Virus record (IMG/VR): IMGVR_UViG_3300014165_000013
Coordinates: 1-29,320 of that record
Direction: 5' to 3' (one strand)
Source of the DNA: a virus
Lineage: Duplodnaviria > Caudoviricetes
DNA: 29,320 nucleotides
Numbering within the stretch: the stretch's first letter is position 1; each line of letters begins with the position of its first letter. Made by a program: the position numbers and the translations under genes. This document shows, piece by piece, positions 7,586 to 29,320 of this stretch. The notes under the pieces are model-generated. The model did no database searches. It was not told the DNA's origin and worked only from the letters and a program-made list of their open reading frames with translations.

Positions 7586-10491
7586 TGGCCGTTCCCTCAA
7601 ATTTACAAGGTGCAGAACTTTGGCCGATTAAAGTCCAAGGGGCGATCAATCGCTACAACGTCCTTGGGGATCCCGAGGTCGAGCAGTTTTATCACGCGGC
7701 GATAGAGGATGGACGGAAGTTAGAGAAAAGTATCTCGGATGCACAGCATGTATTACAGCAGAAAATTCTAGCCTATCAATCTCGGGTGCAAACGTGGCTT
7801 AAGATGCATCTTTTGGCGACGGACGGCGAGTTTCCTACCCCGGCTCGCAAGCCGAAATACATTGCAGATGCTATCACCATAATCCAGCAGGTTCAGAAGT
7901 TCCAAAAGGAAGGTGCGTTGCTGATAGCGACGGTCATAAAGAACATCACCATCCTCACGACCATGGAACAGAATCTGATCGGAATGGTGCAGGCAAACTT
8001 AAACGCCGTGGCCAATCTATTGAACTCCGTCTGTAACTGGGGATTACCTCGGATCCCTTCCATACCGAACTTGCTTGCTGACGGCATGTTCAACTGGAAT
8101 GGTTTCAATTTCTCGCCGTTGTCTACATTCGTTAAGATCCTAACCACGGTGCCTAAGTTTTCGCTTAACTTCTCGTTTAGTCAATGCACAATTGTGAACT
8201 CGGTCTTGGCTGATCTTACTGCCTTGGGGGTCCTCGGCTCCAACGTTCCTCCCCAGGTGGTGCAGTACAGCGGAAACTCTTTCGGGACTCTTTCGTACTT
8301 GCCACCACTGTCAGGTGCAACGCTAGGGGACAACTTTAATCCGAACTCATCTATGCTCGGGAGTCTACCGGATCCCAGCACGATCACAAACGATTACTCT
8401 CTGCCGCCCCAGACTTATCTGGACAACATCGTGTCTATTGTACCGGCTACACGGGGCAATGTCATCGAACCTTCGGACCCAGATTATGGCGACCCAAATG
8501 TGGCTGCTCGGCAGGCCGCGCTTCGGGCCTCATTGGTTGCAAGTTGTAACTTGGGGCAGGTCGTAGCTTCAAACTTTGACCCTAATACTACAGCGGAATG
8601 GCTGCTTTACCTAAATTCTACGCGCACCGGGCGCGGCGGTGTTTGGATTCCGAACTTCCAAGAAGTGTACTCTAGCTTGGTCACACCGTCTGTGAACTAC
8701 CTTTTACAGACTCCTATTCCCTGGAATGATGCTACTGGCACAGTGGTGGATGCACCACTGGCTATTCCTCTTCTCACCACTTTGACACAAGCGGCTCCTT
8801 CCGCTCAGGCCAATCTCCTGTGGAGACTCTCATACATTGAAGCGGCCCTGTTAGGTTATACTCGGAACCACACTTGGGACTATGGGGCGGATCCTTCTTA
8901 TTTGAGTGGATTTACTGGTTTTGACGAAGATTATCGTGTTACGGCCATAGACTTGACAACCACTAACACAGTAATCTTGGGAGAAGGTACGGCTCAATTT
9001 CCAGTTCCGTGCACATTCCCAGCTGCGATCGCGGCGAACATGGCTATCGTTATTGCTGAGGCAACGGCCAATATTGCAAACGATCCGACGTTCCAATCCA
9101 GCAGTCCACAATTTCGCTTTACTTTCAGCCCGCAAGCTATAGCTACGAAGGTGGATCGTTTCACACAGTTCTGGCGCGAATTCAACGACAATCTCATCAT
9201 CCTCCTAGCCCAAGATCCATACCTGTTGGGTTTTGTAGCGACTTACTCGGACGCTCTAGACTCCGCTGTTGACCCGTTGGGGGATCCAACTGATTACGCC
9301 GTCATCCAATCGGACGTGGCTTCGAGAAACCGTATGTGGACGCCGGGTACCCCCTTGTTGAATATTCCGGTGGCTCCAGTCTTGACAGTCACAAACAACA
9401 GTGTCCCTACGGTATCAGACAGCGGTTGGACGAATCCACCTTTTGCTCTTGATCCGGCTGCTTTCCTTTCACGCCCAGACATACAAGCACAGCCAATGAC
9501 CGTGCAAATGGCAATGTTGCGCCTGAATCTGACTTATGCAGCCCTCAACACAGGCCTGCAGGCAACTCTAACCGAAATCGCAACTCAGATCGCTACCTCA
9601 AACAACATCATCGCAGCGGCCCAGGCCGCGCAAACCGGATTTCAGGTTGAATCTTCGTCAACCACCACGTTTGTACCGGCTGGTATGACCGGAACGGCTG
9701 TTGAATTTGATGAGATTGAGTTTGATGTCACGGGCAACGTAGACCCTACTCCTTATCCTTACACCACGTTTACTATTCAATCTGCTGGCGCATATGCCGG
9801 ATTTGGGGAGCTGTATTGGACTGAAGGGAGTGTCCCTGGTGTCCTAACTTTGATCATAATGCAGAATGGCGACCCAATTTACGATCTGACGAGTAACGAT
9901 GACTCGGTACCCCTCCAATTTTCTTTTGCCGGTAACTTTAATGCAGGTGACATAGTTCAGGTTATTGTAAACGATGAATTAGCTGACGCCGAAATCCTAC
10001 CCCAAAGTTATTTTGGGATGCTTCAATCCTCGCCCGCACCCGGTCCAACGATACCCGTCGTCCAGACGGATGTTTCCAAGACATTTACGGCGGGTGAAGC
10101 TATCTCGGCTCTGACAGTTGTTCATATCGCGTACAATGAGACACCAGCGGTTGTAACGCCTGTAGATCCAACCACGGTACTCCAAGTCAATGGAAACACA
10201 GTAATTCCCTTTGCCGATGGGGTTGTGTTGGCGAATGTTGCCAGCGGAGCGAATGCCAATGTTGCCACTTACTATGGCGGAGTGTATCAGATCACCACAA
10301 ATCCAGTATTGAACTGGACGGTTGGTGGATTGCTTTTTGTAGGATCCAACGGTCAGATGACGCAGGACTACGAGAGCCTCATAAGCGGCTCAACACCGGT
10401 TCAGTGGATCATCTGTTGCGGGAGAGCCATCGCAACTGATACTTTCATCTGGGAGCCTCACATTCCGTCGAGATTCAATATGACCTTCTAA
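7585..10491 (+). CDS. Large virion structural protein; helical N-terminus, C1q-like jelly roll and capsid-cement (DUF2190-like) C-terminal module
   Basis: 968 aa, TAATG-coupled. AVEFDEIEFDVTGN...TFTIQSAGAY...FNAGDIVQV resembles C1q/BclA-C. FTAGEAISALTVVH...DGVVLANVASGANANV...WTVGGLLFVGSNGQMT resembles cement-type domains. Confidence 0.55.
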   Translation: MAVPSNLQGAELWPIKVQGAINRYNVLGDPEVEQFYHAAIEDGRKLEKSISDAQHVLQQKILAYQSRVQTWLKMHLLATDGEFPTPARKPKYIADAITIIQQVQKFQKEGALLIATVIKNITILTTMEQNLIGMVQANLNAVANLLNSVCNWGLPRIPSIPNLLADGMFNWNGFNFSPLSTFVKILTTVPKFSLNFSFSQCTIVNSVLADLTALGVLGSNVPPQVVQYSGNSFGTLSYLPPLSGATLGDNFNPNSSMLGSLPDPSTITNDYSLPPQTYLDNIVSIVPATRGNVIEPSDPDYGDPNVAARQAALRASLVASCNLGQVVASNFDPNTTAEWLLYLNSTRTGRGGVWIPNFQEVYSSLVTPSVNYLLQTPIPWNDATGTVVDAPLAIPLLTTLTQAAPSAQANLLWRLSYIEAALLGYTRNHTWDYGADPSYLSGFTGFDEDYRVTAIDLTTTNTVILGEGTAQFPVPCTFPAAIAANMAIVIAEATANIANDPTFQSSSPQFRFTFSPQAIATKVDRFTQFWREFNDNLIILLAQDPYLLGFVATYSDALDSAVDPLGDPTDYAVIQSDVASRNRMWTPGTPLLNIPVAPVLTVTNNSVPTVSDSGWTNPPFALDPAAFLSRPDIQAQPMTVQMAMLRLNLTYAALNTGLQATLTEIATQIATSNNIIAAAQAAQTGFQVESSSTTTFVPAGMTGTAVEFDEIEFDVTGNVDPTPYPYTTFTIQSAGAYAGFGELYWTEGSVPGVLTLIIMQNGDPIYDLTSNDDSVPLQFSFAGNFNAGDIVQVIVNDELADAEILPQSYFGMLQSSPAPGPTIPVVQTDVSKTFTAGEAISALTVVHIAYNETPAVVTPVDPTTVLQVNGNTVIPFADGVVLANVASGANANVATYYGGVYQITTNPVLNWTVGGLLFVGSNGQMTQDYESLISGSTPVQWIICCGRAIATDTFIWEPHIPSRFNMTF

Positions 10492-10628
10492 CAACTAGCA
10501 CGGAACACCAGGATTGTCTACGGGAATGTCCTAAGTGCATACGGGACGAAGTACAATGCACCGATTGTGTCATGCAGCAAGTCTAGCTGATTTGCTTGGT
10601 CCTTCAGTAGATTGTATTGGAGGCAACA

Positions 10629-11192
10629 ATGTCATTCATAGGCAGCCACCTACTCTTCGGATTCTTCTTAATCTGTGCGGCGTTCGCCAGCCCGTTCATC
10701 CTCGTGGGTGTCATCACATACTACCGTCCCAAGCAAACCGTGCGCTGTGTCGAGAAGTCGTTCAAGTGGCTTGCCATCGTGGTCGCGGTACTGGTTGCCC
10801 TAATCATACTCTTCGCCATTATTGATGCCATGACGCCTATGACACTCGTGATAATCCTATTGCTCGCGATCCTTTTCAGGCAGCACAGGCAAAGGGCCAG
10901 TCACAATCTGACTCCTGCTCCAGTTGATCATCATGCCGAAGCCATGCTTGATAACATGGCGTCACTAGCTTACAAAGTCCAAGAACTTAAAGATCAGGTT
11001 GAACAACTTCAAGTTCAGCTAGCTGGCGTGTCCGTGGCGGCTTTGGGTGGTACCTCCCATCCTGCTGTCGAGGGTGACTATGTCTGGTCAAGTGCTTACC
11101 GGGATGTCCTGGAACTGCGTCGCGAGTATGACAGTCTAAAGAGAGCACCGGGCGCGGAGCGTCTAACTGCCGATGACAAGATCCGGGGATGA
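10629..11192 (+). CDS. Membrane protein (about 3 TM helices plus C-terminal coiled/soluble module)
   Basis: GGAGG at 10619-10623 precedes ATG 10629, a better start than 10617. Three hydrophobic stretches, then VQELKDQVEQLQVQLAG...GDYVWSSAYRDVL. Confidence 0.75.
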   Translation: MSFIGSHLLFGFFLICAAFASPFILVGVITYYRPKQTVRCVEKSFKWLAIVVAVLVALIILFAIIDAMTPMTLVIILLLAILFRQHRQRASHNLTPAPVDHHAEAMLDNMASLAYKVQELKDQVEQLQVQLAGVSVAALGGTSHPAVEGDYVWSSAYRDVLELRREYDSLKRAPGAERLTADDKIRG

Positions 11193-11417
11193 GCATTCGC
11201 TGCCAGTATCCCCTGTCGGGGATTCGGATGACGATCTAATGGATTTCTACGGCATTGAAACGTTCGGGGACGGGCAATATCGCTTAGGACCCGGCTTGCG
11301 ACCAGGATTATCCTTGGTACCTGCGTCGTCCTGTTCCACATCACCCCATTCGTTACGAAGACTGCTGACTTTTACGAGTCCAGCACTGTCCAGGCGTAGC
11401 TTCCAATTGTAATATGT

Positions 11418-11856
11418 GGCAACGGTGAGGCGGAGTGCCGTTCAGCACAGGCAAAGTGGTGTGATTTCCGGTACGTTACTGGCGTAGCTTGATGAGGCGG
11501 GGCATAGGCAAGGCACCGTCGATTTCAGTATCGGCGTAGTCTCTAGCATAGCTGGGGCATGGTGCAGTGATTTCTCGCATCGGCACAGTGAGTTGACGTG
11601 ACGGTGAAGTACCGTCGATTAAGGGCAACGTTACACGAAGTGGCGATTTTGCACAGCGGGGTTGTGTTACGGTTCCGTTAGACGAGGCATCGGCAAGATT
11701 GGGCTAAGTGCAGTGCTGGCAGAGTTATCCTCGGCTGAGGTACAGTTGCGTTGAGTCAAGTTTAGCACGGGCGATGTAGTGCTAGATTCTGCGTTGGCAT
11801 AGCGGAGTGCAACTTGGTTGGGTCATGGTGAAGCACGATTTAGTTCTGCTCAGTTG
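11418..11856 (+). repeat. Non-coding degenerate pentamer (NGYNN) array arranged in GGY-initiated 5n+1 blocks; candidate ncRNA array
   Basis: Manual parse gives 17 blocks starting at 11424, 11450, 11481, 11507, 11533, 11556, 11582, 11603, 11624, 11650, 11671, 11692, 11718, 11739, 11770, 11796 and 11827. Of 83 pentamers, 82 have a pyrimidine at position 3 and 68 have GY at positions 2-3. No ORF of 60 aa or more in the six-frame track. Strand is inferred from flanking genes and the 3' structure. Confidence 0.88.
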
Positions 11857-11922
11857 TTCCGGGAGGATTCCGTGGAGACACGGACACATGTTGCCATAAC
11901 GGTGCCTCAACCTCCCGGAGCA
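11855..11922 (+). ncRNA. Predicted structured RNA element (three-way junction) closing the pentamer array
   Basis: TGTTCCGGGAGG (11855-11866) pairs with CCTCCCGGAGCA (11911-11922). Inner hairpin TCCGTG-GAGA-CACGGA (11869-11884) has a GNRA tetraloop. Weaker second hairpin at 11885-11904. Confidence 0.55.
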
Positions 11923-11932
11923 TCATTGTCCA

Positions 11933-11941
11933 CAGTATTGA
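11933..11941 (+). promoter_or_regulatory. CAGTATTGA motif 6 nt before start codon (candidate leaderless promoter)
   Basis: An identical 9-mer with identical 6-nt spacing precedes GTG 11948 and ATG 14212. Neither gene has a clear SD. Confidence 0.45.
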
Positions 11942-11947
11942 AGCGTC

Positions 11948-12301
11948 GTGAAAGAGCAAATTGAGCAGCTGGTTCGTTCTGGCAAGTGTATGAAAGAGAT
12001 CGCTGTTATCCTGGGTTTTCCTTACAGCAAATTTCCCTTCATTCTTGAGGAATTATGGCCTGAAACTCATGGCCGATGGACGAAGCTCTGTGAATTACTC
12101 GGTGTAGATCCCTGGGCGACCACAAAACGCAACACCTGTGCAGGCGCGGCGGGATCAGCTGTTTTCTCAATGTTGGCAAGGGATTTTCCTGCTCAAAGTA
12201 GCACTATTAGAACCAGGTCAGGAGTATTCAAACTCCCGGAGATCCACATCAAAATTGGTGTGGATTTTCTGTTTAGGAGGCAACATGTTACGTTGGGCTG
12301 A
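11948..12301 (+). CDS. Small putative HTH DNA-binding protein
   Basis: 117 aa. N-terminal IEQLVRSGKCMKEIAVILGFPYSKF is an HTH-like pattern. Confidence 0.55.
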   Translation: MKEQIEQLVRSGKCMKEIAVILGFPYSKFPFILEELWPETHGRWTKLCELLGVDPWATTKRNTCAGAAGSAVFSMLARDFPAQSSTIRTRSGVFKLPEIHIKIGVDFLFRRQHVTLG

Positions 12302-12428
12302 ATTTAACACCGAGGAAGAGGCCGATTCATTTTGTTTTGGTTTGAACGGGTTCGGCTGTCCGTTCTATAAATTGTACGGGGTTAACGGACGCGGAAAATG
12401 GTGGGTAAGATTTGCCGGTCTCTACTAA
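12285..12428 (+). CDS. 47-aa hypothetical protein (MLRWAEFNTEEEADSF...KWWVRFAGLY)
   Basis: Strong SD AGGAGG at 12275-12280 before ATG 12285. The same GGAGGCAACA context occurs at the 10629 gene. It is the 3' half of the 12138 track ORF. Confidence 0.65.
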   Translation: MLRWAEFNTEEEADSFCFGLNGFGCPFYKLYGVNGRGKWWVRFAGLY

Positions 12429-12730
12429 GAACAGAAGGTCAGCAAAGTTTCAATAGCAGCGAGTAGTATCCCGGTGAGGATGACAACGAGTAAAATTCCG
12501 AGGAGAGAAGTTTTTAGGAGTTTCCAGAGAAGTGACGGTTCGGACGGCCTAATCCTCGATGAGAAGTTTTTGGAAATTCGGGCACATTCGTTGCAAATAG
12601 TTGGTTCCTTACCCATAAAGATACCCGCTATTCCTATGGGCCAGAATAAAAGGCAAGTTGGTAGCACCCAATCTGGGTAATGGCCCGCTTCAGTTACTTT
12701 TCCACACTTTTTACAGAGGTCTAATGCCAT
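12425..12730 (-). CDS. Membrane-associated zinc-ribbon protein (LITAF/BRI3-like CxxC-hydrophobic-CxxC) with C-terminal TM helix
   Basis: CKKC...WVLPTCLLFWPIGIAGIFMG...CNEC followed by LLGILLVVILTGILLAAI. Confidence 0.65.
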   Translation of the reverse strand: MALDLCKKCGKVTEAGHYPDWVLPTCLLFWPIGIAGIFMGKEPTICNECARISKNFSSRIRPSEPSLLWKLLKTSLLGILLVVILTGILLAAIETLLTFCS

Positions 12731-12791
12731 GTGCCTACACTCTACCGTTGCCTTCTACAAATCAGCTACAGAAACCCAACAGAGACGAATT

Positions 12792-13457
12792 TTGACCATT
12801 TCCAAACATCTCCGTGAGGCGTTAGTAAGCCGGTTCCCAGGTGTGGATTTTACGCCTTATTTTGCCTTCATTGAATCCCGACCTTCGGTGAAGAAAGGCG
12901 AGAAGCACCATATACTTCCCGAGAACGAATTCCCCAACTTTAAGAACGCTGTCGGCAACCTGATTCGAGTATCCACAGGGGACCATCTAATGGCCCACTA
13001 TTACTTGGCCCTTTGTGCGCCGGACTTCGTCCCATTCCAGATGGTTTTCTATTTCATGGCCAATTTCAGGAAGTACGCTTCCCAGATCAAACTCGAGGAG
13101 TTACCTAGTTTTTGCGAAATCTTCGAAAAGGGAAGAGAACGACAAAAAGTCATAGCAGCAGAAGTTGGTAGGCAAAATGTAATTAGTGGTCAGTTCGCCA
13201 AAATCCAAACGGTTGAAAACAGTTTGAAAGGAGGCCGTGTCGCTGGTCGTATCGCTGTGGATAGCGGCCAGCTTGCTAAAGCCAGTGTTTTAGGTGGTTT
13301 AGCCTCTTTGAAATTAGGTTTGTCTTCGTTAAACCTTAGCCAAATGAAGCCAGAGGATCTCTCCAAGTGGGGTACAAAGGGTAATCATGTCCGTTTTCAC
13401 GTCAATCGCGGTATTACTAATTCAGAATGTTCGTTGTGCGGAGGTAAAGATCAATAA
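12792..13457 (+). CDS. Free-standing HNH homing endonuclease
   Basis: EKHHILP...NLIRVSTGDHLMAHYYL is the phage HNH pattern. Two GRxxVxSGQxAK repeats and a terminal HxRxH...CxxC. The start is probably TTG 12792, since ATG 12729 overlaps the divergent gene's start. Confidence 0.8.
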   Translation: MTISKHLREALVSRFPGVDFTPYFAFIESRPSVKKGEKHHILPENEFPNFKNAVGNLIRVSTGDHLMAHYYLALCAPDFVPFQMVFYFMANFRKYASQIKLEELPSFCEIFEKGRERQKVIAAEVGRQNVISGQFAKIQTVENSLKGGRVAGRIAVDSGQLAKASVLGGLASLKLGLSSLNLSQMKPEDLSKWGTKGNHVRFHVNRGITNSECSLCGGKDQ

Positions 13458-13482
13458 CAAGTAATTGAAAACAATCAAACGG

Positions 13483-13518
13483 CGGCGCGATTCTACATGG
13501 ATCGCGCTGTTTGTTTTT
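13483..13518 (+). terminator. Rho-independent terminator after the HNH gene
   Basis: Stem-loop CGGCGCGATTC-TACAT-GGATCGCGCTG followed by TTTGTTTTT. Confidence 0.75.
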
Positions 13519-13552
13519 AGCTGATTTTGGCCTAAATCTCGTAGGATGATAT

Positions 13553-27335: not shown

Positions 27336-27336
27336 C

Positions 27337-27408
27337 ATGAGTTGGTCTCCAGAAATTCGTAAAGATAGAGCCGTCAAAGCAGTTCAAGCTCGATGGGGGA
27401 ATGCATAA
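27337..27408 (+). CDS. 23-aa basic micro-ORF (MSWSPEIRKDRAVKAVQARWGNA)
   Basis: ATG 1 nt after the upstream stop. Its TAA overlaps the next ATG (TAATG at 27406-27410), exactly filling the gap. Confidence 0.5.
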   Translation: MSWSPEIRKDRAVKAVQARWGNA

Positions 27409-29320
27409 TGTCCCCTGTTCTCACCACCCTCAAACCGCTCATTGTCACCTCCCCGGCGATTATTGGGCAATCCCTGTCCATCGACACCCAAGTTTTACCT
27501 CTTAGCATCCAAGCCGACACTTACGCTATCCCTTGGGTCGAGAACACGGAATTCTTCCCCGGTGACCAGATAGTAGATTCGAATGGGAATGTGCAGACGG
27601 CTACTGTTGATGGCGTCACTGGCTTAACGTCTCCCACTTGGTCAAGTGGGCAAGGAAATTTCACAACGGATGGTGCTCAAGTTTGGGTTCTCATTGGTGT
27701 TCCGGATACCACCCGCATCGAAGTCCTTATCTATGATGAAACTTTCACGTTCCTGAATTACACCCTGGGTTCCCAGACGACTCCTTTCCTGGAATCTTGG
27801 ACCACTTTCACAGGTGATATCAATGTGGATCCAACGATTCCTCAGACGCTTTTGCAGATTCGGGGTAGAAATTACGATCCTTCCCCCGGCGCGGTGTGGC
27901 AAGCCAACATCAACTATACAGTTGGCGCACAGATCATAGACAGCAACGGTAACGTGGAGACGGTTATCATAGCTGGAATTTCAGGGGCCGCTGTTCCTGT
28001 TTGGCCTCTTGGGATCGGAGTCCAGACGACGGATGGAGGAGCAACCGGCGCGGTTTGGATTATGACCGGTCTGCCGGCTCTAACCACTACCGTCCAAACC
28101 AATCTGATTTATTTCCAGTCAAGCGATGCAGTCCAGATTGGACCCCCTTCCGGTGTCACTGCCTACAAAGGGGCCACGTCTTGCCAACTTGAGTGGGCAC
28201 AACCAATGTTCCCTGGCACGCTAGGTGTTCAGGTGATGCTTTCCACTGATCCTACTGGCGTCAATGTCCCTTTTACACAGTTCGGGGATCTTGTTTACAA
28301 TGTAACGCGAACAGCCAACGTAATTATTTCGGAATCGAATCAATCTAGTACAGTTCCAAATGTCGAGACTCAGGATATCACCAATGTAGTGATAAATTCT
28401 CCAACATTAGCTACTTTGACCGTGGAAACTGGAACCGCTTTCCAGACCAACCAGCCAATCACTATTGCGAGTTTGACCGCAGCGCAAAACCTCCAGTTGA
28501 ACGGCACTTGGACAGTTTACGGGGCGACTCTCAGTACAGTTATAATCCAGGGTTCAGGTTGGACCGCGCACGGAGCGGTTGCTGATACTGGTACCGCGAC
28601 TCAAACTCTTACCACCAGCACTACAACTTTGACGACAACCCAGGAAACTCAAGAAGTTTCTTTCAGCTCGGTTGTGATAACTCCCGGTGACGTTCAGAAT
28701 GCCACGATATTCTACGCGATGTTGTCAGTGGTTGTCCAAGATCCTAACACAAACGTTGTGTTCCAGTCACAACAAAATGGTCCCATAACTTGTGGCTTTG
28801 TGAATCTGCAAGTCGTTAGTCCGACGGATTTCTTAGCCTTGCAACGCAAGGAAGATATCGCGGGTCGCCTTATTACATACATCACCAACCTTTATCCCGA
28901 TTTGGACTTGTCCCCGCGTTCGGAATTGCGAGATTTGATCATAGATCCAATCGCTTTAGAGCTAGCCAATATGTCGGTTCGTGAATGGTTTAGTCGGTGC
29001 GCCACTAGCATCTCGGCTATGAGCCAACTAGATGACACGACTGGCGATGGTTTTAGTGACCCATTCAGCCAATCACCGACCAAACAACAATTGGCCCGCG
29101 CTTATGGTTTAAGCGCCTCGGACACACAATCCCTCGTCGATACCCAGTTTGATATCCTGGGTGAACAAGCGGGTGTCACGCGGGGTACAGCGACGCCGGC
29201 AGTCGTAGAGTTGACGTTGTTCACGTACATAGAGCCAACATTGGCTGTTACTTTCCCACTGGGTGTTCAAGTAAGCACTGTGATGGATGCTAATACACCC
29301 GCGTTGACATTCGTCACAAC
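27408..29320 (+). CDS. Baseplate J/gp47-like wedge protein with long N-terminal CBM/FN3-like extension (3'-partial; absent from the ORF track)
   Basis: Manually translated open frame MSPVLTTLKP... to the window end. From about 28850, EDIAGRLITYITNLYPDLDLSPRSELRDLIIDPIALEL...FDILGEQAGVTRGTATPAVVELTL...VTFPLGVQVST matches the Baseplate J N-terminus. Confidence 0.82.
   Translation, partial: MSPVLTTLKPLIVTSPAIIGQSLSIDTQVLPLSIQADTYAIPWVENTEFFPGDQIVDSNGNVQTATVDGVTGLTSPTWSSGQGNFTTDGAQVWVLIGVPDTTRIEVLIYDETFTFLNYTLGSQTTPFLESWTTFTGDINVDPTIPQTLLQIRGRNYDPSPGAVWQANINYTVGAQIIDSNGNVETVIIAGISGAAVPVWPLGIGVQTTDGGATGAVWIMTGLPALTTTVQTNLIYFQSSDAVQIGPPSGVTAYKGATSCQLEWAQPMFPGTLGVQVMLSTDPTGVNVPFTQFGDLVYNVTRTANVIISESNQSSTVPNVETQDITNVVINSPTLATLTVETGTAFQTNQPITIASLTAAQNLQLNGTWTVYGATLSTVIIQGSGWTAHGAVADTGTATQTLTTSTTTLTTTQETQEVSFSSVVITPGDVQNATIFYAMLSVVVQDPNTNVVFQSQQNGPITCGFVNLQVVSPTDFLALQRKEDIAGRLITYITNLYPDLDLSPRSELRDLIIDPIALELANMSVREWFSRCATSISAMSQLDDTTGDGFSDPFSQSPTKQQLARAYGLSASDTQSLVDTQFDILGEQAGVTRGTATPAVVELTLFTYIEPTLAVTFPLGVQVSTVMDANTPALTFVT

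Follow-up and report, generated by a model that had tools for sequence, protein, structure and literature searches.

A non-coding stretch of about 480 bases in the 29,320-nt DNA analysed here (the window), which represents a structural region of a jumbo phage, is a genuine array of a common, punctuated VIPR subtype, here standing alone. Its VIPR-type identity is very likely, and the explanation that we favour, and regard as probable, is that the array encodes some 18 short guide RNAs for a Cas7-fold Vipr protein, which would bind, and probably silence, the DNA of rival phages. This explanation rests on the register of the array, on a family of like arrays and on the tie of these arrays to one Vipr clade. 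A rule by which such arrays may be read, with three information-bearing bases in every unit, is a new lead that is supported but unproven.

Register, extent and setting of the array

The unit of the array is N-G-Y-N-N, and the units are grouped into blocks with a length of 5n+1 bases (Table 1). Of the 18 blocks, 17 consist of four to six units plus one base and the remaining one is irregular, with 23 nt. The initial annotation of this DNA had described a hidden five-base register with 5n+1 punctuation, and both features were recovered: the parse obtained by dynamic programming scored 102, compared with 26.9±6.5 (maximum 48.5) in 1000 dinucleotide shuffles, and the GY autocorrelation that it had proposed as a check reached 42, 42, 48 and 43 at lags of 5, 21, 26 and 31, respectively, compared with about 11±3 (maximum 24) in 1000 base shuffles. 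Re-derivation of the blocks from 11424 onwards likewise gave 17, 16 of them opened by GGY, with spacings of 21, 26 or 31 nt and a single exception of 23 nt. The start of the array had been placed too far downstream, since one more full block and three lead-in units precede it. In the 16 regular blocks from 11424 on, Y occupies position 3 in all 79 units and GY is present in 64; with those of the 23-nt block, four in number, the totals are about 83 units and 68 with GY, in agreement with the earlier count. Over the whole array, 84 of 85 units have kept Y3, while the inner units carry G at position 1 in 20 of 68 cases and at position 2 in 52 of 68. The units that have lost G2 are mostly third or fourth in their block, and the same but weaker trend is seen in the family. 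No second array is present elsewhere in the window.

Table 1. Position of the array, its parts and the neighbouring features in the window
Feature	Position	Strand	Remarks
Variable slot	10492..13552		About 3 kb, between two conserved structural-region genes
Hydrophobic ORF	10617..11192	+	191 aa; not Vipr-like; sub-threshold holin-like matches only
79-codon ORF	11173..11412	+	15 residues align on the Vipr G-loop, not significant
Punctuated pentamer array	11377..11857	+	Predicted guide-RNA array; three lead-in units and 18 blocks
Lead-in units	11377..11392		Three units preceding the first block
First block	11393..11423	+	31 nt, GGY-started; upstream of the start given initially
Starts of the other 17 blocks	11424, 11450, 11481, 11507, 11533, 11556, 11582, 11603, 11624, 11645, 11671, 11692, 11718, 11739, 11770, 11796, 11827
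Stable stem with two inner hairpins	11855..11922	+	z -3.99; inverted repeat I2; directly after the last block
Small ORF	11948..12301	+	Weak helix-turn-helix-like features, best score 0.81
HNH/homing-endonuclease-like gene	12729..13457	+	Same insertion as the array

A similarity of 10-24 nt between a few of the blocks would speak for a decayed microsatellite or a chance pattern, but the parse and the autocorrelation lie far outside the shuffles, and arrays of this form go together with one protein family in many phyla. A coding repeat is contradicted by the 4-12 stops found in each of the six frames of the array region, which bear out its initial designation as non-coding; origins of this kind are hardly credible.

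The stem that follows the last block is a candidate 3' cap or terminator. Neither the array region nor the stem has a match in Rfam (E values up to 5), a promoter and terminator scan returned nothing and a blastn search with the array region against 50,697 phage records gave no match. The slot that holds the array measures only 169 nt in relative L010, and no array is found at the same gene slot in relatives L004, L006, L007, L010 and L011; no homologues of the ORFs neighbouring the array were found near other arrays.

An Acidobacteriota host is inferred for the phage because a 968-aa gene product of the window matches that of Tunturiibacter phage Tunturi_5 (37.7%), to which the phage is related. 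The same array is carried by G001, a near-identical contig of 51 kb rated as 16% complete. In run X2, roughly half the population contains a 5.3-kb cassette inserted at window position 10471 (L191:10028-15324), which alters the end of the 968-aa gene and of which the window is the empty form; labels read from translations describe its genes as collagen-like fibre, glycosidase-like, TPR/methyltransferase-like and others. This insertion was considered as a home for a vipr gene and rejected, as its fibre-like and other genes include no Vipr. No array variants were seen in run X3, and runs X4-X7 yielded small pieces only. Contigs from the RNA runs span the whole phage region evenly and are thus uninformative on array expression. 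At the end of the window, positions 27336-29320 lack any plus-strand ORF of at least 65 codons, although the region is otherwise densely coding on that strand.

Like arrays and their Vipr clade

An exact two-block version of the punctuated motif matches about 170 IMG/VR stretches, 125 of which were retrieved. Among 80 flanked motif loci, a set in which a few contigs are counted twice, 68 clustered with one protein and four more were added by profile (72 of 80), and this family of ~200-aa proteins is encoded by 49 of 50 whole records chosen from the 125 retrieved stretches. In many phages the array follows the gene for this protein directly. The association also holds when loci are picked by the protein: the best 80 were taken from each of two sets, 169 GTDB and 553 viral loci, and same-strand arrays of at least four blocks accompany 63 of the GTDB and 69 of the viral ones (132 of 160 together), whereas controls contain none in 341 kb. 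The punctuated form and the one protein family are linked across many phyla, and the blocks of the family arrays mostly comprise five or six units (1,740 of 2,744). In some arrays almost all blocks have an identical last unit (L046:2701-3611, L066:4810-6329, L200:4620-4860), and across all arrays the last triplet of a block is often A-rich; this may signal processing or reflect a motif on the target side.

The clade protein belongs to no Pfam family. Its structural model (pLDDT 91) matches Cas7/Csm3 chains, with a best E value of 5e-9, and it can be aligned with the Vipr of Escherichia phage SUSP1 (184 columns, probability 88%, E 2.9e-6). The family found beside like arrays is thus a Vipr homologue with RAMP fold and G-loop, as anticipated by the initial proposal of a VIPR-like system with a RAMP/Cas7-fold partner. 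In SUSP1 Vipr, the residues His17 and Asp177 read G1, according to the available text of 10.64898/2026.04.26.720927. The clade lacks both: the former is replaced by Thr, Ser or Ala in 40 of 42 proteins and the latter by Gln in all 42, while the G-loop Trp and Arg are kept in 38 and 41 of the 42, respectively. The predicted loss of the G1-reading residues fits the free first position of the arrays, in an alignment with only 16% identity.

The window array itself consists of tandem five-base units in which a fixed motif alternates with variable bases, as in VIPR. With type II VIPR of SUSP1 it has in common the five-base unit and, through its relatives, a homologous protein with the G-loop Trp and Arg. 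In SUSP1 every unit carries GGY, each RNA comprises 9-16 units and is followed by a conserved 3' tail, and the target is read with a one-nucleotide skip, whereas in the window array G1 is free, the blocks have four to six units and there is no tail per block. The closer counterparts are the YNNNG repeats and the staggered arrays with one-nucleotide overlap named in the available text of the VIPR preprint (10.64898/2026.04.26.720920; figs S17-S18). These have the same five-base period, fixed GY core, free first position, one-base register shift and phage origin, and a Vipr/RAMP partner, which the window array has in its relatives; they differ in that no vipr gene is adjacent here, and the identity with fig. 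S18 is drawn from its legend. Compared with that legend, the 5n+1 blocks fit a one-nucleotide stagger if the G at the border is shared. Because the preprint names these forms, the window array is assigned to a VIPR subtype and not to a new class. The punctuated architecture is probably already known, and the initial description of a divergent or new class was overstated, the same form being common beside one Vipr clade. Further noncanonical repeats are listed in the accessible part of another preprint (10.64898/2026.10.21.760802). At L073, canonical GGYNN arrays of more than 120 units stand beside a SUSP1-like Vipr domain in an open frame of 591 codons.

The crRNAs of class 1 CRISPR systems, bound by Cas7, resemble the present arrangement in the fold of the likely partner and in the many short guides per array. 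They differ from the window array, in whose region there are no direct repeats with spacers and no cas genes, and in which the scaffold is interleaved with the information-bearing bases.

The partner gene

No RAMP-like gene had been noticed in the window initially, and the search agrees: the window, G001 and 1.5 Mb of DNA from this phage and related jumbo phages yielded neither a Vipr gene of the clade nor a SUSP1-like one. A vipr gene flanking the array, a feature of VIPR loci, is absent from both the window and G001. A scan for further arrays and for a RAMP gene, suggested at the outset, was fruitful in the databases, where it led to the like arrays and their Cas7-fold family; it gave no array at the array slot of the five relatives and no Vipr gene in the 1.5 Mb. 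The phage genome is estimated at ~320 kb, of which the search could cover about 67 kb, or roughly 20%. Among 401 Acidobacteriota genomes the Vipr clade occurs in one, which is the seed itself, and a loose motif gave matches at the control level; two of these genomes (G116 and G141) are unpublished, and none of the conclusions depends on them.

The absence of the gene could mean that the array is a true orphan, serving as a decoy or hijack with which a phage devoid of vipr soaks up or redirects the Vipr of a rival. Solo vrRNAs of this kind are described in satellites and vipr-null phages in the available part of a third preprint (10.64898/2026.10.15.759431); they share with the window a phage array without a nearby vipr and differ, as far as that part tells, in that they occur in Enterobacteriaceae elements as GGYNN arrays bearing the SUSP1 tail. 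The lack of vipr in two complete relatives and the location of the array in a lineage-specific insertion also point in this direction. Against it, about 80% of the genome is unseen and distal vipr genes do occur. A second motif retrieved 31 loci, 22 with vipr within 2.5 kb, four that are not true arrays and five without vipr in the flank; for the last group, vipr was present elsewhere in all three near-complete records and absent from the two fragments. In one of these three, a 258-kb jumbo phage, an array lies ~24 kb from vipr. Because the near-complete flank-negative records held vipr elsewhere, a distal and an orphan arrangement are indistinguishable for the window array, and true orphan status is considered somewhat unlikely. 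In the 258-kb phage (G493:C1, ~35,100-37,900 and 58,800-61,400), arrays flank the only vipr gene on either side, and further arrays lie ~22-24 kb off on the other strand.

Alternatively, the array may have been acquired together with a vipr gene that has since decayed or been replaced, leaving a relic out of use. The presence of G2 in 52 of 68 inner units, compared with about 96% in motif-selected arrays, the one irregular block and a faint G-loop-like stretch ~100 nt upstream of the array would agree with this. The last of these (11250-11295; probability 0.9%, E 0.065) is not significant, and the ORF that contains it is only a possible Vipr remnant, judged from 15 aligned residues. Moreover, Y3 is almost perfectly kept, and the combination of relaxed G2 and strict Y3 does not show decay, because it is also found beside intact vipr genes (L583, L590). 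A relic is quite improbable. Under the favoured explanation of a working guide array, the Vipr protein would be supplied by an unassembled part of the genome or by a co-infecting phage.

Proposed reading rule, targets and significance

A variable first position and an extra base per block, as initially described, probably reflect a wrong phase. The re-phased unit is likely to consist of a scaffold, GY or, at the start of a block, GGY, followed by three variable bases, the former first position becoming the third information base and the extra base a scaffold G. Non-contiguous reading of the target had also been proposed; here, it appears somewhat probable that each block copies contiguous target DNA at three bases per unit. 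In the proposed mechanism the array would be transcribed, as type II VIPR arrays are, and one Vipr protomer would bind each five-base unit, burying GY. Read from unit to unit, the three variable bases would spell a contiguous target of 12-18 nt, while the extra G at the start of a block would break the register and mark the end of one guide and the start of the next. By analogy with type II VIPR, the guides may then direct Vipr to the double-stranded DNA of rival phages, leading to silencing.

If blocks are contiguous copies, a neighbour bias is expected across the scaffold inside blocks and not across their borders. In 1,055 dereplicated blocks, TA is indeed depleted across the scaffold (0.90 in GC and 0.84 in GT context; pooled 0.88, z -4.1). 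In 1,787 blocks, a 4-mer junction score gave z 4.4 inside blocks versus 1.2 at their borders, and a depletion of in-frame TAA/TAG is seen (odds ratio 0.61, p 1e-5). The compositional picture is not free of contradiction, since the gapped N4N5-to-N4N5 signal is absent (z -1.4) and the NN|NN join statistic reaches z 2.5. An antisense stop-codon test was mostly null, and in substitution rates position 1 is not separable from positions 4-5 or from drift.

The search for targets with window blocks, another of the proposed checks, was unrewarding: none of the 17 regular blocks has a target above the shuffled range in the 1.5 Mb from this phage and related jumbo phages. Pooled searches gave no enrichment (7 versus 2-6, 20 versus 10-18 and 8 versus about 4.8), N-N-x matches (one-nucleotide skip) show no overall excess, and eight named Faecalibacterium phages show no excess of targets. 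Slight excesses in 236 vipr gene regions and among 5'-anchored 17-mers (4 versus 0.6±0.8) are too weak to lean on. Decoded blocks of L248, L270 and L173 match the vipr genes of other phages, two near the start codon, with only a slight excess over controls.

Two candidate targets were nevertheless obtained in other phages. A clade of temperate phages of ~42 kb (L024, L357-L436), whose host we guess to be Faecalibacterium, has six related blocks that, decoded in frame, correspond to part of a 38-aa ORF of sister phages, and the guide blocks match it at two offsets. The ORF is present in none of the eight guide-bearing loci within the DNA retrieved. The best match has one mismatch in 21, and at most three mismatches in 21 were found for four of 33 long blocks, compared with at most two blocks in 53 permutations; these four count once, because all belong to one target family. 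The third base follows the target in this family, the three-base step being kept with the x position matching too. The best site is recovered even when position 1 is ignored, and six of the seven such positions then agree. The second candidate is a perfect 19-nt antisense match from L151 to L259, for which no relatives of the target gene were found.

Whether the third base pairs or was merely copied is a separate question. With ordinary VIPR chemistry, positions 4-5 alone would pair, the target base between pairs would be skipped and position 1 would be a copy retained from the writing of the guide. A one-nucleotide skip has been shown for type II, the only type for which the preprint text at hand tests skip rules (10.64898/2026.04.26.720920), and that text gives no targeting rule for YNNNG or staggered arrays. 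Position 1 coincides with the codon wobble base in the two candidate targets, just like the skip base of VIPR, and sequence statistics cannot separate pairing from copy history. Conversely, two bases per unit amount to 8-12 nt in a block of four to six units, which is too little for specificity. In addition, diverged guides match the target no worse at position 1 than at positions 4-5, two of them having no mismatches at the former and three to four at the latter. Ordinary chemistry is unlikely, while actual pairing of the third variable base is a possibility to which we lean slightly less than to its opposite. No paper stating a three-base rule was found in a literature search that was short on subscription journals.

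A fuller version, which remains tentative, is that a second code is used by this Vipr clade, which is very large (a scan puts it at about 1,600 IMG/VR stretches). Each protomer would bury two scaffold bases and pair three, with no base skipped. The array would be cut at the single-base shifts into mini-guides of 12-30 nt, and the jumbo phage would carry guides without the protein, hijacking that of a rival.

The window locus adds another array to a subtype apparently noted in the VIPR preprint, and the reading rule matters more. If position 1 copies the target without pairing, it would be a footprint of guide writing from target DNA. Pairing of three of the five bases with contiguous DNA would mean that the family has two codes or more. 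This would bear on the move of RAMP proteins towards CRISPR-type pairing, the second code being intermediate between the gapped two-of-five VIPR code and contiguous CRISPR pairing. Such a system would also constitute a very small programmable DNA binder, with a protein of ~200 aa and a guide of 21-46 nt.
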